This document shows positions 1 through 6,299 of a stretch of DNA of 6,299 nt, one piece after another. The stretch comes from a virus. Each line of letters opens with the position of its first letter. The stretch's first letter is position 1. The position numbers and the translations under genes were made by a program. Under the pieces are notes generated by a model. It made no database searches, had not been told where the DNA came from, and worked only from the letters and a program-made list of their open reading frames with translations. Location: the IMG/VR virus record IMGVR_UViG_3300034037_000063, positions 1 to 6,299 of that record; one strand, given 5' to 3'.

Positions 1-94
1 TCACTCCAACAATTGTTCATGTTCCCAAGGGAAATAAATATAAAAGGATCGAAGCGCCTTGTGGTTATTGTTGGGCTTGTCTCAAAAATAAACA
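1..94. repeat. Terminal direct redundancy (left copy), identical to 6206-6299. This is the signature of a circular genome or contig of 6205 nt.
   Basis: Base-by-base comparison shows tcactccaacaattgttcatgttccc...ctcaaaaataaaca at both window ends. The copies are direct, not inverted. A single ORF reads through the junction. Confidence 0.95.
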
Positions 95-977
95 AAACGA
101 CCTGGTCGCCAAAGTTCTTATGGAACTCCAAACCTGCGACTGGTCGTTCGTCGCTACTTTCACCTACGACGACAAAAAATTACCGCAAGGCGACAAATCC
201 GCCCAAAACATTAACAAGTACCACTTTAAAAAACTCTGTGCGCACATGAGAAAATTCTCTAATTTCAGATATCTTGCGGCCGGAGAATACGGCAAACGCA
301 AACGCCGCGCGCATTTCCATGCCGCATTCTTTGGCGTCGGTCAAAAACCGGATATCCTCACACTAAAAACCCGTGGCCAATGGAAATACTGGCCGCACGG
401 GTTCTCATATTTCGACGAACTCGATGCCCGAAGCGTCGAATATATCGCGAAATATCTAACAAAACAACGGCGGGCAAAGACCGACGAACATCAAGAGACA
501 GAGTGGGTTACTTACTCAAAATACCCACCGCTTGGAATAAATTTCATTTTAAAACTAGCTGACCAATACGTGGACGAGAGAGTGTTCCCCAGAACATTCC
601 GAGTAAATCCACAGGGCTCTAATCTCTTAAACCGCCGCATGCAAATCAGCGGCGTATCACAAAATCTCTTTCTCGAACGTATTTTCACACAATGGCCAGA
701 AGCCATAAACCATCAAAAAACAGAATGGATGCAAAACGCTCAATCTCGTTGGGCGAAATGGCGGGCTAAAGAAAATTGGGCAAAAATGACCAACAAGGAA
801 CAAATCGAGGAACTAAAAGCGTCTTTTAGGACGCTACCCTACAGAGAACCCTTGACAGAGAAAGAAAAACAATGGGAAGAATACAAATATACCGATGAAT
901 ATTGGGATTGGGCAAAATGGCTAGACGGAATCAACAAAGAACGCGCAACCCAAGAGCGCCCGAACCGCGTCCAGTAA
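3..977 (+). CDS. Replication initiation protein (Microviridae VP4 / phiX174 A-like HUH endonuclease). This is the part downstream of the linearisation point. The true start is the ATG at 6199 and the full protein is 327 aa.
   Basis: The frame is open from base 3 and in frame with the track ORF 120-977. The N-terminal sequence MCITPTIVHVP...APCGYCWACLKNK is the typical microvirus Rep Cys cluster. Motif 1 is FVATFTYDD. GEYGKRKRRAHFHAAFFG holds the HUH motif, with HFH at nt 312-320. VEYIAKYLTK is the YxxxY catalytic tyrosine motif (TAT at 441-443 and 453-455). AGGGA lies 6 nt upstream of the ATG at 6199. Confidence 0.93.
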   Translation, partial: TPTIVHVPKGNKYKRIEAPCGYCWACLKNKQNDLVAKVLMELQTCDWSFVATFTYDDKKLPQGDKSAQNINKYHFKKLCAHMRKFSNFRYLAAGEYGKRKRRAHFHAAFFGVGQKPDILTLKTRGQWKYWPHGFSYFDELDARSVEYIAKYLTKQRRAKTDEHQETEWVTYSKYPPLGINFILKLADQYVDERVFPRTFRVNPQGSNLLNRRMQISGVSQNLFLERIFTQWPEAINHQKTEWMQNAQSRWAKWRAKENWAKMTNKEQIEELKASFRTLPYREPLTEKEKQWEEYKYTDEYWDWAKWLDGINKERATQERPNRVQ

Positions 978-1243
978 CATCAGCCGCGAAGCGCCACCAA
1001 ACCCCAACTCGTTCTTCCACTAAACAAATTCAGGGAACCTATCGCAAGATCGGTACCGTGAATAAATCAACACTATCGACCGAGTTGACTATCTCGGAAC
1101 CGATAGAGAGGGGTGGCCCAAACAAAGCTGTAAAAACAGCGACCGCGACAACTCCCGTCACGCGAAAAAAATGTAAGGGCCGCCCCAAGTCAAACAAATC
1201 GAAAGGGGGCGGTTCACGCTCCTTTGTAAAATGGTGTTCATAA
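917..1243 (+). CDS. Highly basic, low-complexity 108-aa protein. It is a candidate ssDNA-binding/packaging protein (functional analogue of phiX174 J / gokushovirus VP8) and overlaps the 3' end of rep in another frame.
   Basis: It is the only open frame across the 978-1230 gap. The ATG is at 917; the track start at 902 is a TTG. By my count it has 26 K/R against 4 E and no D in 108 aa, and it is rich in T/P/S/N. Its stop at 1241-1243 lies 2 nt before the ATG at 1246. There is no convincing SD, and no homology is recognisable by eye. Confidence 0.45.
   Translation: MARRNQQRTRNPRAPEPRPVTSAAKRHQTPTRSSTKQIQGTYRKIGTVNKSTLSTELTISEPIERGGPNKAVKTATATTPVTRKKCKGRPKSNKSKGGGSRSFVKWCS
1073..1106. other. 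Imperfect stem-loop, CTATCG-a-CCGAG / loop ttgactat / CTCGG-aac-CGATAG, lying inside the basic ORF.
   Basis: Inverted repeat read directly: 6 + 5 bp with a small internal loop. Confidence 0.3.
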
Positions 1244-1245
1244 AA

Positions 1246-1434
1246 ATGCCCGACGAAAAAAGTCTTACCCTCTTAGGGGGGCTGATCGCCATTGGCTTAT
1301 TGACTTGGAACACCTCGACGACTTATGACCTGTCAATTGACATAGCGTCATTAAAAGCGGACCTTATGGGCCGCGTAACTCGCCTAGAAACTACAACCGA
1401 AAAACATCTAAACCGGAAGGAACATCAACAATGA
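1246..1434 (+). CDS. Small membrane protein (62 aa from the ATG at 1246, or 67 aa from the ATG at 1231). It has an N-terminal TM helix and a charged C-terminal helix. Function unknown; holin-like or virion/entry accessory candidate.
   Basis: The hydrophobic segment SLTLLGGLIAIGLLTW is followed by the amphipathic, charged SLKADLMGRVTRLETTTEKHLNRKEHQQ. The stop TGA (1432-1434) overlaps the next ATG (1431) as ATGA. Confidence 0.55.
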   Translation: MPDEKSLTLLGGLIAIGLLTWNTSTTYDLSIDIASLKADLMGRVTRLETTTEKHLNRKEHQQ

Positions 1435-1604
1435 AAGCAATCTTATCCCCGATAGCTCGCCGTATAGGAACCTTATCAGGCGGCTTGCTACTTGGCGTCG
1501 GAATGACCGAAAGCGACGCTTCGTTAGCCGTCGCAGGAATAACCGCCGTTGCACTCTTTGCAATGGACCTGGCACTGTCACGCTTCAACTTTTTGAGGTT
1601 CTAA
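1431..1604 (+). CDS. 57-aa protein with two predicted TM segments (MKAILSPIARRIGTLSGGLLLGVGMTESDASLAVAGITAVALFAMDLALSRFNFLRF). It is not in the supplied ORF track. Holin-like or membrane accessory candidate.
   Basis: Hand translation of 1431-1604 gives an open frame of 57 codons plus TAA at 1602-1604. GGAAGGAA lies about 10 nt upstream. It has an ATGA overlap with the preceding ORF, and its stop is 1 nt before the pilot-gene ATG at 1606. There are two hydrophobic stretches. The reverse-strand ORF 1391-1588 is its mirror image. Confidence 0.55.
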   Translation: MKAILSPIARRIGTLSGGLLLGVGMTESDASLAVAGITAVALFAMDLALSRFNFLRF

Positions 1605-1605
1605 A

Positions 1606-2472
1606 ATGCTAGGCGCAATTATTGGTGGACTAGCGTCTGTCGCTGGTTCAATCCTCTCGAAACCTTCTAGGGTTTCAGGACAACAATCTACTCTTGAAGC
1701 CGCCGCTGGCGCTGTCGAAGCACAGGAAAAATACGGCATTAACGCGCTTGAACTTATTCGAGCCGGTTCCGCCGGAATGTCCTCCGGCTCGAAACCGCGT
1801 GTCGGGTCAACTGCAATGCTTCAACAAGGCTTCGACCAAATATCAAACGTCCTGACAGGACGCGAAGCGCAACAAAATGCAAGGGACGCCGTTCAGGATG
1901 AACTTGCAAAAATAACACTCGAACAAAAAAAAGCGGATCTGGCCATAACAGGCAATCGGCTTTCGAGAATGGTATCACCCACAGCCCAAAATATGGGGCT
2001 TGGACAAAGACACATCAACACCGATCAAGGCCAAAAACATCTGGCCGAAATTGCAAAACCAACACCCATTAAACTCAATGCAGAAGGACAAACTGTCATT
2101 GATACCGATGTAACCGACGGAGGCACAGGAAAAACAATAAAACCAATCGAAAGCGTAGTCGTTAAAAGCGGGCGCACTGTCGACGTAGTAGCAGGCCCCG
2201 AACTCGACGAAATGATCACTGGTGCCGCTATCAGCGCAATAGACAACACCCGTGAAAACGGGCTGAAAAGTATGCGTCTGCCAGGTTTCCATCCAAAAGA
2301 ACTTTGGCACGGTAAAAAGGACTTTGAAAAAATCAAAGAATACGATGCCATGCCACCCGTGGAATGGCCAAGCAGTTTCAGCCACAGAAAACCACTAGGA
2401 TGGGACAACTGGTCAAATACCAAAAAAATGAACCATATTATGATTTTCAAAAAAACAACGACAAGGAAATAA
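1606..2472 (+). CDS. DNA pilot / minor capsid protein (VP2 / phiX174 H-like), 288 aa.
   Basis: The Gly/Ala-rich hydrophobic N-terminus MLGAIIGGLASVAGSIL is followed by a Q/A/E-rich predicted coiled coil (REAQQNARDAVQDELAKITLEQKKADL). Both are typical of microvirus pilot proteins. GAGG lies 8 nt upstream. The gene is adjacent to the MCP gene. Confidence 0.75.
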   Translation: MLGAIIGGLASVAGSILSKPSRVSGQQSTLEAAAGAVEAQEKYGINALELIRAGSAGMSSGSKPRVGSTAMLQQGFDQISNVLTGREAQQNARDAVQDELAKITLEQKKADLAITGNRLSRMVSPTAQNMGLGQRHINTDQGQKHLAEIAKPTPIKLNAEGQTVIDTDVTDGGTGKTIKPIESVVVKSGRTVDVVAGPELDEMITGAAISAIDNTRENGLKSMRLPGFHPKELWHGKKDFEKIKEYDAMPPVEWPSSFSHRKPLGWDNWSNTKKMNHIMIFKKTTTRK

Positions 2473-2475
2473 ACA

Positions 2476-4125
2476 ATGTCAAACACAATTCGGCAATCTC
2501 AAGCACCAATGCCATATTCAAGAACTCGACGCATGGACAATTGCTCGGTTCTAACCTCTGGCGACGCTGGCGTAATTATTCCAGTATCAATCGCTCCGCT
2601 TCATCGCGGCGATAGCGCCTCTGGCCGCATTATGATCAACATGGAATTGGCAGAAATGCCACGGCCACTTGAAAACGCAGTCGTCGGACGGGTACAAAGC
2701 TGGTTTATCCCGCGCCCGTCACTGCCGCACTTTAGCGGACTAGACGAATACACTCACGCTTTCCATGGCAAAAATATCACTCAACTCGGAGCCGCTGGCC
2801 GAACTCCCCCGTCTCTTTACGATACGGTTGGCACTGGCGCTATTGCCGCCGCCCAATCCTCGGAGTTTTTCAAATCTCTCGGAATTTCATTGGTTGCTTC
2901 AACTGCAATCAATACCGATTACATTGACGCGTACAACGTCGTCTGCAATTTCCGCCGCGCGGCATATTCTAGCAAAACCACGCGTTACGATTATTACCAA
3001 GAAAACGCCACAACGGCGCTCGAACTTAAACCCGCGTTCTGGCCCAGAAACCGGATGCACAATGTCGTGCCCGACTATGAACAAGCTCTTGTTATCGGGT
3101 CACTCGACCTCGATGTGACCTCTGGGTCAATTCCGGTTTCCGGTTTGGGCGTATTCTCTGGTTCCAACGCCTCGACCAATGCAAATATCAAAAAAACTGG
3201 CGGCGTTACCCAAGCCACTGGCGAATGGTTCGGCGGCACTGCACTGACCGCCGAAGAAGACCCAGACAATGCCAACTTCCCGAAGATCCTAGTGGAAATG
3301 GCTGGCGAGGTTATCGGCACATCTCTAGCCGATATCGACAAGGCCAGAACCACTCAAGCCTTTGCAAAAGCTCAAGCCGCTATGGCTGGTAATGATTATT
3401 CCGGCTTCAACAATGACGACGTGATAATCTCCGAACTAATGCAAGGCTTCGTTGTACCGGAAGAACTCTTTAACCGTCCGTGGTTGCTCGACAATAAAAC
3501 GGTGCAATTCGGCATGCAGGAACGCCACGCAACCGATGCCGCGAACCTTGACGATAGCGTCACAATCGGACGCGCCTCTACATCGCTTTCAATCAACGTA
3601 CCTCGTGCGGAATATGGCGGCGTTATCCTCACAACAATTGAGGTTATGCCGGAACGGCTCTATGAACGCCAATCCGACGAATACATTTACTGTACGACGG
3701 TCGACGACCTTCCAAACGCTCTGCGCGATCTTCAACGAACGGAGCCAGTCGATATTGTTATCAATCGACGCATGGATACTGCTCACACAACTCCAGCCGG
3801 CACTTTCGGCTATGAGCCAATGAACTCCAAATGGCAGAGAGAATTTACCCGCCTCGGCGGCGAATTCAGGCAACTAACACCCGGCACACCGTCAACAATT
3901 GCGCGGACGGCAATTTGGCAACCAGATATCGTTGACCCTGCGTTTACGTCGGACCACTACGAATGCCCACACCCGTTCCCACAGGACGTCTTTAGCGTCC
4001 CATCAAACGACATTGTAAATATTTCTGTTGTTCAACAGATCACAATTGTCGGTCACACCCAATTCGGCGACGAGCTTGTCGAGGATAACGGCGAATTTCT
4101 AGCCATAGAAGCGGAGCAACTATAA
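2476..4125 (+). CDS. Major capsid protein (Microviridae VP1 / phiX174 F-like), 549 aa.
   Basis: The N-terminal signature SVLTSGDAGVIIPVSIAPLHRGDS...MPRPLENAV...WFIPRPSL follows the conserved microvirus F/VP1 pattern (G-x-hydrophobic-hydrophobic-P ... PGD-like ... FxP-R). The size is typical. AAGGAA lies 7 nt upstream. It is the largest ORF in the genome. Confidence 0.93.
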   Translation: MSNTIRQSQAPMPYSRTRRMDNCSVLTSGDAGVIIPVSIAPLHRGDSASGRIMINMELAEMPRPLENAVVGRVQSWFIPRPSLPHFSGLDEYTHAFHGKNITQLGAAGRTPPSLYDTVGTGAIAAAQSSEFFKSLGISLVASTAINTDYIDAYNVVCNFRRAAYSSKTTRYDYYQENATTALELKPAFWPRNRMHNVVPDYEQALVIGSLDLDVTSGSIPVSGLGVFSGSNASTNANIKKTGGVTQATGEWFGGTALTAEEDPDNANFPKILVEMAGEVIGTSLADIDKARTTQAFAKAQAAMAGNDYSGFNNDDVIISELMQGFVVPEELFNRPWLLDNKTVQFGMQERHATDAANLDDSVTIGRASTSLSINVPRAEYGGVILTTIEVMPERLYERQSDEYIYCTTVDDLPNALRDLQRTEPVDIVINRRMDTAHTTPAGTFGYEPMNSKWQREFTRLGGEFRQLTPGTPSTIARTAIWQPDIVDPAFTSDHYECPHPFPQDVFSVPSNDIVNISVVQQITIVGHTQFGDELVEDNGEFLAIEAEQL

Positions 4126-4592
4126 TGCAAAAAATCAATCCAGCCGAACGGCTAAACTTTGCCTCTGGCAAAACAAACGGGTTTCTACCGGAAACCCAAA
4201 TCAACACGGTTTACCTGGAAGCCCCTGCGGCTCTCTACGTAACCTACGGCGACACAACACCGGAATTAATCGGTTACGGAACCGAATTCAAATTCCAACT
4301 CGACCGCATAGAAGCGGTTCGTATCTGGTCAACTGTCAAAGGTGTCGCAATCGTCAAACCAATCGACGTCTACGAAAGTGCTGGCGAGGTGTTTACCAAC
4401 TTCGACAAACGACCGTCAATGTCGCCACTTGAGCAAAGTGTCACACTGGCTCTGCGACGTCTGAAACAGAAGGAGCGCGAACTTGACAAACGCCTGACCA
4501 CACCAAAACCGCAAACAACACCGGAACCAACACCGGAACCAACACCGGAACCAACACCGGAACCAACACCGGAAACAACACCGGAAACATAA
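4125..4592 (+). CDS. 155-aa hypothetical protein with a beta-rich N-terminal domain, a basic helix and a C-terminal (TPEP)n tail. Candidate structural (spike or decoration) or scaffolding protein.
   Basis: It is coupled to the MCP stop by a TAATG overlap (4123-4127), with GGAG 9 nt upstream. The ORF is clean. Its C-terminus reads TTPKPQTTPEPTPEPTPEPTPEPTPETTPET. Confidence 0.75.
   Translation: MQKINPAERLNFASGKTNGFLPETQINTVYLEAPAALYVTYGDTTPELIGYGTEFKFQLDRIEAVRIWSTVKGVAIVKPIDVYESAGEVFTNFDKRPSMSPLEQSVTLALRRLKQKERELDKRLTTPKPQTTPEPTPEPTPEPTPEPTPETTPET
4518..4589 (+). repeat. In-frame 12-nt tandem repeat: 4 perfect copies of acaccggaacca (TPEP) and 2 copies of acaccggaaaca (TPET), running to the stop codon.
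   Basis: Units counted directly: 4518-4529, 4530-4541, 4542-4553, 4554-4565, 4566-4577 and 4578-4589. TAA is at 4590-4592. Confidence 0.95.
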
Positions 4593-4599
4593 TTAAAAA

Positions 4600-4620
4600 G
4601 GGCGGCGATCGCCGCCGCCC
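4600..4620. other. GC-rich stem-loop 8 nt after the stop of the 155-aa gene. Possible terminator-like or ssDNA structural element.
   Basis: GGGCGGC (4600-4606) pairs with GCCGCCC (4614-4620). Alternatively there is the perfect 16-nt palindrome GGCGGCGATCGCCGCC (4601-4616). No T-tract follows on the + strand; an A5 run precedes it. Confidence 0.5.
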
Positions 4621-4641
4621 TAACAACTGACGGGAAAAAAC

Positions 4642-5250
4642 ATGAAACATATAAAAACGACAATCGCCGCACTAATGGCTCGGGCACGAGCATCTCGCGG
4701 CTATAAACCAGAAATCAATTTTTTCGACGACATGCCACAACAAGGCATGATCTTGGACGAGATCAAACAGTACAAAGTCCATAAAGACTTTTTCACTTCA
4801 ACAAGACAATTGCGCTACCATGAACGCGCAAATTGGGCAGGAACGGACCCACACATTAAAGCCTTCGCGGGTTATCTCTGCGAGGCACTGCGGGAAAAAG
4901 AAATTCCTATGTACTGTCATACCGCCTATCGCTCGCCTGCTCTGCAAAAACATCTAAAAGCCTCTGGCAACTCAACCCTAAATTCAGGACCTCATCAAAG
5001 AGGTGCCGCCGTGGACATAGTCCACAGCCTCTATCACTGGCGCATGTCGAAGGACATGTGGCAATACATAGGCGATCTGGGTCATGAAATAATTAGCCGC
5101 AAATCCCTACCCATGGAATGGGGCGGCAATTTCAAATCTCTCTATGACCCTGCTCACTGGCAACTTAAGGAGTGGCGGCAAAAGCCAATAATCGACCCGA
5201 TTATTCCTGAGCAAATCACGCCCTATTCACTTAAAAAAGGAGCGCGTTAA
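4642..5250 (+). CDS. Zinc D,D- or L,D-peptidase of family M15 (VanY / phage endolysin type), 202 aa. Putative peptidoglycan hydrolase.
   Basis: The motifs are collinear. YRSPALQ is the substrate-binding Arg motif. GPHQRGAAVD is H-x6-D, with His CAT at 4993-4995 and Asp GAC at 5014-5016. WGGNFKSLYDPAHW is D-x-x-H, with His CAC at 5155-5157. This is the standard M15 zinc-ligand arrangement. Confidence 0.85.
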   Translation: MKHIKTTIAALMARARASRGYKPEINFFDDMPQQGMILDEIKQYKVHKDFFTSTRQLRYHERANWAGTDPHIKAFAGYLCEALREKEIPMYCHTAYRSPALQKHLKASGNSTLNSGPHQRGAAVDIVHSLYHWRMSKDMWQYIGDLGHEIISRKSLPMEWGGNFKSLYDPAHWQLKEWRQKPIIDPIIPEQITPYSLKKGAR

Positions 5251-5459
5251 TGTATAACCGCGAAAAACAAAAACTCGATTTTATCGATTTAACCGCCAAA
5301 ATGGACCTAAAACTACTCGTTCACTGTCAAGCGATGCTTGCCGACCATATAAATAATGTCGTGCAATATATGTTATTGCAACACAACAGGAACGTGAAAA
5401 ACAATGGTGACAATACTCTACACAAAAAAGAACAGCCTCTACCTACAACTAGGCTGTGA
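5250..5459 (+). CDS. 69-aa hypothetical protein, predicted helical.
   Basis: A strong AGGAG lies 7 nt upstream. It has a TAATG overlap with the peptidase stop (5248-5252). Its 3' end overlaps the next ORF by 56 nt. No motif is recognisable. Confidence 0.5.
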   Translation: MYNREKQKLDFIDLTAKMDLKLLVHCQAMLADHINNVVQYMLLQHNRNVKNNGDNTLHKKEQPLPTTRL

Positions 5460-5928
5460 TTGCTACGACGAAACACGGGATGCACGAACATTTAAAGGTT
5501 CTAATCCTGTAATTGCGCACCCGCCCTGTAGGGGGTGGGGACGCCTTCGTCATTTATCAAATCACAAACCAAGCGAACTTCTCTTGGCGTATCATGCTTT
5601 AGGCGTGGTACGCAAAAACGGTGGAGTGCTCGAACATCCTAACGGCTCTATACTATTTAGAGAGGCAAATCTCCCCTTACCTGGGGGATTGCCGGACGAA
5701 TATGGTGGCCGAACAATACAAGTATATCAAGGCCACTACGGGCACCGAGGCCCAAAAAATACACTGCTCTACATCGTTGGATACAACGAACTATCACATA
5801 ACAAAAGAGCGCCTCCTGTAATAAAAAATGTGGCTAACATGTCAAAAGCAGAACGAGAGGCAACGCCTCTTGAGTTCTGCAAATACCTAATAAACATTGC
5901 TTCAAAATGCTGCACTACGGTTGAGTAA
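5404..5928 (+). CDS. 174-aa protein resembling a minimal C5-cytosine-methyltransferase catalytic core. It has PPC, LEHP and YGHRGPKNTLLYIVG segments but lacks the FxGxG SAM loop and a target-recognition domain. Function unknown.
   Basis: An in-frame TGA at 5395-5397 fixes the start at the ATG at 5404. VIAHPPCRGWG (Cys TGT at 5527-5529) resembles motif IV GxPCQxFS. VVRKNGGVLEHPNG (Glu at 5632-5634) sits 35 residues after the Cys and resembles the motif VI ENV context. QVYQGHYGHRGPKNTLLYIVG resembles motif VIII (DYGxPQxRxRxxxxG) at the expected distance. The C-terminal ATPLEFCKYLINIA resembles a motif X helix without the GN. Confidence 0.8.
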   Translation: MVTILYTKKNSLYLQLGCDCYDETRDARTFKGSNPVIAHPPCRGWGRLRHLSNHKPSELLLAYHALGVVRKNGGVLEHPNGSILFREANLPLPGGLPDEYGGRTIQVYQGHYGHRGPKNTLLYIVGYNELSHNKRAPPVIKNVANMSKAEREATPLEFCKYLINIASKCCTTVE

Positions 5929-6057
5929 ACGAAACCAAACCTTGAGCTGCATCTTCTAAGCAAATTCTGGACGCCATCGGTGCAAGGAAATGCCAGACCG
6001 CCACAATCGGTGCCGGAGGCACGGACTATACGGAACAATCCCAAAAACAGTCGTTAA

Positions 6058-6103
6058 ATAACCACTCAGCCGGTTATACCGTCACTTCGTGCGCGGTGGT
6101 TAT
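6058..6103. other. Weak stem-loop: ATAACCAC (6058-6065) pairs with GTGGTTAT (6096-6103) around a 30-nt loop. GGTTATA occurs twice (6072-6078 and 6098-6104).
   Basis: Read directly from the sequence. The stem is short and the loop is long. Confidence 0.3.
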
Positions 6104-6120
6104 AAAACAACGACCTATCA

Positions 6121-6161
6121 CTGACCAACCAAAAAATTCTTGCAATTTTTTGGTTGGTCAG
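6121..6161. other. Perfect 18-bp stem with a 5-nt loop in the main intergenic region, 38 nt upstream of the rep ATG. Candidate origin-associated element (complementary-strand priming or Rep recognition) or transcription-attenuating element.
   Basis: CTGACCAACCAAAAAATT (6121-6138), loop cttgc (6139-6143), AATTTTTTGGTTGGTCAG (6144-6161). The reverse complement was verified base by base with no mismatch. Confidence 0.85.
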
Positions 6162-6198
6162 ACACTACCTTGTTACCGTGTCTATATTAGGGAAACTC

Positions 6199-6299
6199 AT
6201 GTGCATCACTCCAACAATTGTTCATGTTCCCAAGGGAAATAAATATAAAAGGATCGAAGCGCCTTGTGGTTATTGTTGGGCTTGTCTCAAAAATAAACA
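6199..6299 (+). CDS. 5' end of the replication initiation protein gene, with the true ATG. It continues into the duplicated bases 6206-6299 (= 1-94) and on to the stop at 977.
   Basis: ATG at 6199-6201, then TGC ATC ACT CCA..., giving MCITPTIVHVPKGNKYKRIEAPCGYCWACLKNK. This is in frame with 3-977 once 6206 is mapped to 1. AGGGA is at 6189-6193. Confidence 0.9.
   Translation, partial: MCITPTIVHVPKGNKYKRIEAPCGYCWACLKNK
6206..6299. repeat. Terminal direct redundancy (right copy), identical to 1-94.
   Basis: Exact 94-nt identity with the window start. Confidence 0.95.

Follow-up and report, generated by a model that had tools for sequence, protein, structure and literature searches.

The stretch of viral DNA analysed here, positions 1 to 6,299 of IMG/VR record IMGVR_UViG_3300034037_000063 (the window, by which we mean all 6,299 nucleotides), carries at 5404-5928 of its plus strand a gene for a 174-residue protein of a large phage family that is predicted to adopt the fold of DNA cytosine-C5 methyltransferases (C5-MTases) at roughly half their usual length. 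A presumed catalytic cysteine and a glutamate are invariant in this family, and the glycine-rich loop that binds S-adenosylmethionine (SAM or AdoMet) and the target-recognition domain (TRD) have been lost. The reality of the gene, the size of its family, its fold, its conservation and its genomic context could all be established in silico. They portray a protein that is real, widespread and mechanistically ambiguous, and most probably a minimal orphan methylase, as already guessed in print for one homologue. Specifically, the explanation that we favour, with a probability somewhat short of one half, is that of an orphan, stand-alone catalytic core that performs SAM-dependent C5 methylation of DNA, or a close equivalent, and thereby protects the phage DNA. 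The gene and the parts of its product are:

5404..5928, plus strand: gene for the predicted minimal C5-MTase-fold protein (ATG start, 174 aa, isoelectric point (pI) 9.25), member of phrog_12600 and homologue of Ebor Gp8
5410..5442, plus strand: predicted strand beta1 (TIL), the loop YTKKNS in place of the FxGxG AdoMet loop, and invariant Y13 (residues 3-13)
5458..5484, plus strand: predicted strand beta2 and an acidic/basic patch, D19, D22, R25, D26 and A27, at the position of motif II (residues 19-27); motif III/beta3 is deleted
5509..5541, plus strand: predicted strand beta4 and the Pro-Cys catalytic loop VIAHPPCRGWG, the motif IV equivalent, with the presumed nucleophile Cys42 (residues 36-46)
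5620..5649, plus strand: predicted strand beta5 and the motif VI equivalent GGVLEHPNGS, with Glu77 and EHP replacing ENV (residues 73-82)
5728..5781, plus strand: predicted beta6-beta7 hairpin, the motif VIII equivalent, with Q109, G113, H114, K118, T120 and Y123 (residues 109-126)
5782..5853, plus strand: variable low-confidence linker at the TRD position (residues 127-150); the predicted local distance difference test score (pLDDT) is 66 in residues 131-140
5854..5904, plus strand: REATP motif (R151, E152, T154, P155) and predicted C-terminal helix, motif IX-like (residues 151-167)

Family, predicted fold and retained motifs

The ATG at 5404 is backed by the N-termini of homologues, such as MVAALF and MVSVLY. 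The gene call of the source annotation (P0001) is only 107 aa long and begins at internal Val68, with the loss of Cys42. A preliminary description, made from the letters and translations of the window, had already delimited this plus-strand open reading frame (ORF), and every motif string that it quoted is present in the 174-aa translation: LYTKKNSLYLQL at residues 5-16, VIAHPPCRGWG at residues 36-46 with Cys42 inside, ELLLAYHALGVVRKNGGVLEHPNG at residues 58-81 with Glu77 inside, and YGHRGPKNTLLYIVG at residues 112-126.

A word-indexed search yielded 316 homologues at E ≤ 1e-3. The best 120 of these are 174-295 aa long and, if the 107-aa fragment from the source annotation is set aside, share 42-55% identity with the window protein, and the named proteins among them are all labelled 'hypothetical'. 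An exhaustive profile search against 1.84 billion cluster representatives enlarged the family to at least 2,284 clusters at 50% identity (E ≤ 1e-3), with 821 cluster representatives found at E ≤ 1e-30. The family is thus large and widely conserved, and it spans phages and prophages; its members are basic proteins (median pI 9.36). The window protein also matches the hidden Markov model (HMM) of phrog_12600 over residues 1-129 and one further stretch (E 3.4e-49), a family which PHROGs labels 'unknown function'. The preliminary description could name no described family with this architecture, yet the family had been catalogued and one member, Gp8 of the Rhodobacter microvirus Ebor, had been annotated.

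Residue conservation was assessed in an alignment of 266 diverse members that includes 50%-identity representatives. All 266 carry P40, C42, G74, E77 and P79; P41, Q109 and K118 are each found in 265 members, H39 and H78 in 264. Conservation reaches at least 95% for Y13, R25 (261/266), A27 (260/266), G73, S82 (263/266), D98, G113, H114, T120, Y123, T154 (257/266) and P155 (254/266), and is also high for L162 (254/266), W45 (251/266), D22 (245/266) and D19 (227/266). The preliminary description had staked its interpretation in advance on the conservation of Cys42 and Glu77 among homologues, a trial that it survived, as neither residue varies in any member. In the N-terminal half, the polar residues S11, Y13, D19, D22, R25 and D26 are too conserved for this half to be a mere scaffold.

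Could the motifs be a chance resemblance in a spurious or non-coding ORF? The source annotation has just the 107-aa fragment, and the protein met with no match in Pfam, in NCBIfam or among PDB sequences, as would be expected of such an ORF. Against this stand thousands of homologues with invariant motifs, a confident structure model and the conserved synteny of the gene in microviruses. We consider the probability of a chance ORF negligible and reject this candidate on the conservation of residues across the family: ORF 5404-5928 is a genuine accessory gene of a microvirus of ~6.2 kb.

AlphaFold2, run with a 120-sequence alignment, produced a model with pLDDT 92.8 and a predicted template modelling score (pTM) of 0.89, in which beta strands occupy residues 3-5, 19-21, 36-38, 74-79, 102-108 and 119-125 and alpha helices residues 12-15, 56-72, 83-87, 148-152 and 156-167. 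When this model was compared by Foldseek with 350,542 PDB chains, all of the 50 best matches were DNA cytosine-C5 methyltransferases, led by M.HaeIII (E 1.6e-4, probability 1.00) and including M.HhaI, DNMT1, DNMT3A/B, ZMET2, DIM2, DNMT5 and a prophage methyltransferase (MTase). Nearly all of the annotated matches in the viral structure database BFVD were likewise C5-MTases, the best of them small viral proteins or domains: the top match is a protein of 210 aa (TM-score on the query, TMq, 0.66; E 4e-7), and further matches are a 218-aa entry from Tetraselmis virus and a 245-aa entry from phage phiH. The likeness is specific to the C5 class and not generic to Rossmann folds. The resemblance to C5-MTases proposed in the preliminary description was thus borne out by both structure searches, and at the level of the predicted fold the protein can be described as a C5-MTase-type, class I Rossmann-like domain.

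For comparison by motif we used a diverse C5-MTase alignment of 14 members, A4, from which the positions of M.HhaI (sequence identical to PDB 10mh_A) were read. According to the model, the family retains beta1, beta2, beta4-beta7, the Pro-Cys loop H39-P-P-C42, E77, the motif VIII hairpin and the REATP helix. PF00145 enzymes such as M.HhaI and M.HaeIII share the predicted fold of the family, and in them the Pro-Cys of motif IV, the Glu of motif VI and the hairpin of motif VIII follow one another in the same order and at similar spacing. At the end of beta1, the LFA of the family corresponds to the LFA in motif I of M.HhaI (IDLFAGLGG). In the motif IV equivalent, H39-P40-P41-C42 follows beta4, at the place where P80-C81 is invariant in A4; the family pattern PPC(R/Q)xW(G/S) and the A4 consensus GFPCQxFS both have an aromatic residue three positions past the Cys, and one family member carries PPCQRWG. 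The distance from Cys to Glu is 35 residues here and in 242 of the 266 members; the value of about 38 given for M.HhaI in the preliminary description is right (C81 to E119, 38). From the Glu to the position of R165 the spacing is 42-43 in the family and 46 in M.HhaI. At the C-terminus, REATP resembles the 'RE(C/A)A' of motif IX, for which the A4 consensus reads TPRECARLQGFPD...GNxV.

Favoured activity and its alternatives

The genomic surroundings of the family were surveyed by Pfam scans and jackhmmer searches of neighbouring ORFs (BLAST seeds alone classed 41 of 160 loci). The sampled loci are the closest relatives of a microvirus protein, and the share of phages with single-stranded DNA (ssDNA) among them is therefore probably inflated. 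A Mesorhizobium microvirus prophage and the closest metagenomic relative (54% identity) again show the order capsid, ~200-aa protein, M15 lysin, MTase-like gene and Rep; a second metagenomic relative with 54% identity has the identical order as far as the MTase-like gene, where its contig ends. Ebor shows lysin, gp8 and Rep in the same succession as the window, and in Tortoise microvirus 37 the family gene lies immediately 5' of Rep. An inovirus signal was more common, with Zot detected by jackhmmer in 38 of the 160 sampled loci and a microvirus capsid in 2, and the family occurs chiefly as an accessory gene of inoviruses. Examples are prophages of Thauera and Rhodocyclaceae and Xanthomonas phage fSU1, in which the replication initiator follows the gene either immediately or after one small ORF. 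Two Rhodocyclaceae contigs (L009 and L010) contain 2-3 inovirus prophages in tandem, and each complete prophage copy repeats a block of 101-aa protein, MTase-like protein, Rep, coat and Zot.

According to the Pfam scan, the first downstream ORF of at least 200 aa encodes a rolling-circle initiator in about half of 97 loci (REP_ORF2-G2P 20, Rep_trans 9, Phage_GPA 7, RepSA 7, Rep_1 2 and other rolling-circle families 3, counts that may overlap) and a DNA methyltransferase in 7 of the 97. Inovirus prophages account for most of the loci with a rolling-circle initiator. Upstream neighbours include NinB (7 loci), Rep genes, Lar and Dam. In double-stranded DNA phages, the gene is found beside ParB, primase or helicase genes, or beside the packaging genes of a Mu-like phage. 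Some members are fused to other DNA-related domains: in P0157 and P0171 the N-terminus is formed by a Dam-like D12 N6-adenine MTase domain with intact EPFAG and DPPY, and P0133 combines ParB_N with a long tail to which no function is assigned. In a relative with 53% identity, a D12 MTase gene starts 4 nt downstream.

Taken with the fold, the invariant Cys and Glu and the basic charge, this context of DNA methylases, ParB and replication genes finds its simplest reading in a stand-alone orphan enzyme that modifies DNA cytosine at C5 and has been pared down to the catalytic core. The same reading matches the literature view of microvirus accessory MTases and of canonical C5-MTases in inoviruses and P2-like phages: accessory methyltransferases have been noted in microviruses (PMC9239249), canonical DNA_methylase families, the only ones that can be recognised in the inovirus family tables of Roux et al. 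2019, are known inovirus accessories, and canonical C5-MTases hold comparable positions in P2-like phages.

As to catalysis, cofactor, substrate and biological role, we infer the following. The protein would act alone, as an orphan DNA pyrimidine-C5-modifying enzyme, with Cys42 attacking C6 of cytosine and Glu77 holding the N3/N4 face of the base. A one-carbon (or other) group would then be moved to C5 from a cofactor held in an N-terminal pocket, for which F/Y6, S11, Y13, D19, D22, R25 and D26 are the candidate residues; SAM in a non-canonical pose would be the simplest candidate cofactor. Because the TRD is missing, specificity would have to be low or be set by the state of the DNA (single-stranded, replicating). 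The likely pay-off would be the marking of progeny DNA against host restriction or defence by a gene that, in the window, belongs to the replication module and immediately precedes Rep.

Several lines of evidence weigh against this activity, beginning with the motifs themselves. In place of FxGxG, the family consensus of the AdoMet-loop substitute is F-A-R-x-D-S, with variants (F/Y)-(A/V/T)-(R/K)-x-(D/N)-S: G20, G22 and G23 of M.HhaI have become R/K, D/N and S, and 248 of the 266 members have no Gly at positions 7-11, so that the absence of the glycine-rich loop noticed in the window protein proved to be family-wide. D19 and D22 come after beta2, strand beta3 is absent from the model, and the distance from the beta1 aromatic residue to the Cys is 36-37 residues compared with 63 in M.HhaI, i.e. 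~26 residues shorter. E119-N120-V121 is invariant in A4; the family keeps the Glu and replaces Asn-Val by invariant His-Pro. Motif VIII reads G113-H114-x-x-x-K118-x-T120, the A4-invariant R163 and R165 being replaced by K118 and T120 (QxRxR to xxKxT across the family). The TRD is indeed absent, as had been remarked, its position being occupied by a linker of 24 aa in the window protein (family median 36 aa, range 4-61), and in a comparison of the family alignment with A4 motif X, GN(A/S)V, is missing after REATP. With invariant residues replaced and motifs III and X and the TRD missing, canonical SAM binding and base-flipping recognition are doubtful. The remodelled pocket could still bind SAM, given an aromatic residue at the F18 position, acids past beta2 and invariant Y13 and R25. 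The structural portrait in the preliminary description, with its retained motifs, lost loop and TRD and change of ENV to EHP, was accurate.

Sequence searches point in the same unfavourable direction. PF00145 was absent from Pfam scans of the protein and 120 homologues even at E ≤ 10, NCBIfam and PADLOC scans of the 174-aa protein found no match, a single-sequence search of the PDB was empty, and a profile search of the PDB brought up nothing beyond spurious matches to designed helical repeats and pol eta. Pairwise alignments by hhalign were non-significant with M.HhaI alone (E 0.57), with the A4 profile (E 0.34) and between the 266-member alignment and A4 (E 0.095); this last alignment placed PPC over PC and GH..K.T.LY over GvPQnReRiy. 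A protein-database search with M.HhaI found only orthologues above 70% identity, of little use for profile building. Hence, of the profile and structure searches that the preliminary description had proposed, the former gave no significant PF00145 or PDB match and the latter agreed on C5-MTases, with TM-scores to solved MTases that are modest (0.45-0.53 on the query). Failing motif I, the motif VIII arginines, the TRD and the HMM match, the family is not a PF00145 family in good standing.

Two further observations, outside the protein itself, weigh in the same direction. No homologue was found in 72,556 PLSDB plasmids, unlike what is seen for ordinary orphan MTases. In Ebor, the only cultured carrier, 5-methylcytosine (5mC) is at background level: nanopore sequencing of virion DNA gave just 1.58% 5mC among C calls, in any context, and the authors could attribute no methylation to Gp8 (PMC11980548). 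The same data showed 11.53% N6-methyladenine (6mA), and the source of this adenine signal was left unassigned (PMC11980548); the level seems high for the host CcrM alone and may in part be model error. The plasmid result contrasts with the frequency of the family in prophages of the same bacterial groups, an unusual distribution for an orphan methylase. An analogy with plasmid leading regions, also considered, was dropped, as the plasmid search with its 0 homologues gave it no direct support.

The near-invariant histidines 39, 78 and 114, which have no counterpart in the C5-MTase alignment, likewise sit uneasily with an ordinary methylase and raise the question of a metal site. The protein would be a hydrolase or deaminase that depends on metal if H39, C42, H78 and H114 bound zinc at the C-terminal edge of the sheet, Cys42 then being a ligand and not a nucleophile. 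Three near-invariant His and a Cys do lie at the ends of beta4, beta5 and beta6-7, and none of these positions is His in A4. The idea is inferred from residue positions alone, however, Foldseek matched no metallo-hydrolase fold in the PDB or BFVD, and the PPC(Q/R)xW(G/S) loop, which reads PPCQRWG in one member, is close to the motif IV consensus of C5-MTases; we hold this explanation to be very improbable.

The same residues could instead serve Cys/Glu chemistry on a DNA pyrimidine in a reaction other than SAM-dependent methylation. The donor might be carboxy-SAM (Cx-SAM), a folate- or aldehyde-type one-carbon unit, or none, and the outcome another C5 adduct or deamination via a 5,6-dihydro intermediate. 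Such a departure would be in keeping with the consistent replacement of the G-loop by R/K-x-D/N-S, invariant Y13 and R25 in the cofactor half, the loss of motifs III and X, the invariant H39, H78 and H114 as new polar groups near the active site, and the background level of 5mC in Ebor DNA. A precedent exists in CmoX, a phage C5-carboxymethyltransferase homologous to C5-MTases, which takes Cx-SAM through an Arg contact, has an (S)PPC motif and is often found with ParB-domain genes. CmoX, however, is full-size and modifies GC sites, with canonical adenine/ribose contacts (Phe/Glu/Asp to the adenosine), a TRD and a co-encoded CmoA, none of which is seen in the family, and the carrier microviruses, with ~8-10 genes, have no such cofactor-supplying gene alongside. 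On balance this alternative appears unlikely, if worth keeping in view. An enzyme independent of SAM, or with another cofactor, that employs Cys42/Glu77, the histidines and the pocket of Y13 and R25 for the modification or deamination of cytosines exposed in ssDNA or rolling-circle intermediates has a similarly low but appreciable probability. Were it true, it would represent an undescribed DNA-modification chemistry, mainly in ssDNA phages (inoviruses and some microviruses), in which the base is already unstacked and a TRD is unneeded.

A missing TRD would be equally unneeded on RNA, the substrate of DNMT2 (tRNA), or on free pyrimidine nucleotides, and the little 5mC in Ebor DNA fits a substrate other than DNA, as do the invariant R25, K118, S82, T120 and T154, which could grip phosphate. 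The fusions and adjacency to DNA MTases and ParB_N and the location in DNA replication modules speak for DNA instead; none of the neighbours seen belongs to nucleotide metabolism, and DNA MTases, rather than DNMT2/TRDMT1 in particular, make up the best structural matches. A non-DNA substrate is accordingly a decidedly improbable option in our estimate.

Lastly, the protein might not turn over at all. As a protein that binds DNA, traps it covalently or serves as a decoy, whether to regulate replication near Rep or to block a host defence, it would have kept the MTase core only to grip a flipped or single-stranded cytosine. The rolling-circle initiator immediately downstream in about half of the sampled loci, the phage-only distribution with 0 plasmid matches, the basic charge and the loss of the SAM loop are all compatible with this role, which we nevertheless judge improbable: the invariance of P-P-C, E-H-P, Q109, K118 and T120 in 266 members whose mutual identity is below 50% would be more usual in an enzyme, PADLOC found no match and no anti-defence homology is known, and the association with Rep is in part a sampling effect of ssDNA-phage relatives. 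We retain an orphan C5-modifying enzyme as the favoured explanation; the contention of the preliminary description that the function is 'not ordinary methylation' has not been established, and the sole published opinion on a homologue is that of a putative DNA methylase.

Genome of the window

The two ends of the window are an exact direct repeat of 94 nt (1-94 = 6206-6299), so that the microvirus genome it represents is complete, circular and 6,205 nt long. The principal features around the MTase-like gene are:

4642..5250, plus strand: M15-family peptidoglycan peptidase (lysin), the upstream neighbour (PF13539, E 6.1e-5; phrog_465 endolysin, E 9e-14)
6121..6161, plus strand: perfect hairpin with an 18-bp stem and a 5-nt loop, CTGACCAACCAAAAAATT / AATTTTTTGGTTGGTCAG, in the 270-nt intergenic gap between the MTase-like gene and Rep
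6199..6299, plus strand: 5' end of the Rep gene, from the ATG at 6199 (translation MCITPTIVHVPKGNKYKRIEAPCGYCWACLKNK..., a Cys-rich N-terminus)
1..977, plus strand: rest of Rep (PF23343, REP_ORF2-G2P); bases 1-94 duplicate 6206-6299

Rep runs over the circular junction into 95-977 and has ~327 aa, position 6199 being equivalent to -6 and in frame with 120; the program-made ORF list holds it only as 120-977 (285 aa). Its Cys-rich N-terminus resembles those of the Ebor and Mesorhizobium Rep proteins, and the capsid protein of the window is distantly related to the Ebor capsid. The lysin occupies the place of Ebor Gp7, which is annotated just as a peptidoglycan hydrolytic enzyme. Gp7 is reported to be a peptidoglycan hydrolase verified by experiment, the first from any ssDNA phage (PMC11980548). 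Just past the capsid gene lies an ORF (4125-4592) for a protein of 155 aa with no assigned function, in which seven copies of a 12-nt tandem repeat (4490-4601) encode a (TPEP)n tail. A 69-aa ORF (5250-5459) overlaps the lysin stop by ATGA and, in another frame, extends 56 nt into the MTase-like gene; no family matched it significantly, and relatives seem to be without it. Folded as ssDNA, the hairpin at 6121-6161 has a free energy of -19.4 kcal/mol (z = -7.4); its candidate roles are those of an origin, a signal for complementary-strand priming or a regulatory element. It is followed by a promoter-like (sigma-70-like) site at 6159-6188, in a setting where the count of such sites is not above shuffle expectation.

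Relation to known systems and implications

The closest annotated relative is Gp8 of Ebor ('Tainavirinae'), a direct homologue (41% identity over residues 2-164, E 6e-39) that shares the HPPC, GGVLEHP, GH..K.T and RE.TP motifs. Gp8 has 163 aa and the window protein 174 aa, with a slightly longer beta5-beta6 loop, and nothing essential differs between them. Gp8 was called a 'putative DNA methylase' by its authors on the basis of HHpred, whose match was UniProt Q67472, described as a probable DNA methylase (E 2.3e-8, residues 37-160; PMC11980548). This match starts at the Pro-Cys loop and does not include the cofactor half. With the family already catalogued and one HHpred-based annotation published, the novelty claimed in the preliminary description was overstated. 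We found no description of the loss of the glycine loop, the three gained histidines or the link to rolling-circle replicons in the Ebor, microvirus and inovirus literature examined.

Nor is the protein as exceptional in size as was claimed. Although M.HhaI, with 327 aa, is about twice as long, the cytosine DNA methyltransferase of ranaviruses FV3/STIV, which may be the entry Q67472, is, like the window protein, small, stand-alone and virus-encoded, with 214 aa. It differs in being recognised as COG0270, whereas the family, compared with Pfam models, has no PF00145 match. The mini C5-MTases of BFVD, such as A0A2P0VN45 of Tetraselmis virus and Q38204 of phage phiH, have 210-249 aa and only 11-18% sequence identity to the window protein. 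Given the ranavirus enzyme, the viral proteins of 218-249 aa annotated as (cytosine) MTases and a split-enzyme subunit of 179 aa, the statement that the protein is about half the size of the smallest known C5-MTases was too strong. What stands of the earlier interpretation is the C5-MTase-type fold, the invariant Cys and Glu and the loss of loop and TRD; the novelty and the size argument were put too strongly.

Split C5-MTases of the M.AquI type also have half-size chains with the Pro-Cys and motif VI/VIII core. In Mycobacterium phage Severus (L180:838-1831) gp77 (179 aa) carries motifs I-VIII and gp76 (139 aa) motifs IX-X, next to a SprT-like gene. Split enzymes, however, keep LFSGVGG, ENV and KRER and have motifs IX-X on the second subunit, whereas the family has its own motif IX-like C-terminus. 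One subunit of a split enzyme, an option raised in the preliminary description, is thus unlikely, and we rejected it because no conserved partner gene was found in the microvirus or inovirus contexts examined. DNMT3L, a regulatory subunit, is a degenerate C5-MTase fold that has lost its catalytic residues. The present family degenerates in the opposite way, keeping Cys and Glu and losing the cofactor loop and the TRD.

Should the protein prove active as a methylase, no smaller self-contained DNA C5-methyltransferase core would be known (~135-200 aa), and it would show how little enzyme suffices where sequence reading is not required, with a bearing on enzyme minimalism and engineering as well as on restriction evasion by ssDNA phages with genomes of 5-7 kb. 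If SAM is not used, the family would be the second natural diversion of the C5-MTase scaffold to another chemistry, after CmoX, and would point to an unrecognised DNA modification in the filamentous and microviral prophages of Proteobacteria. Ebor on Rhodobacter capsulatus provides a cultured, genetically tractable carrier, and either way at least 2,284 'hypothetical' sequence clusters gain a testable annotation.

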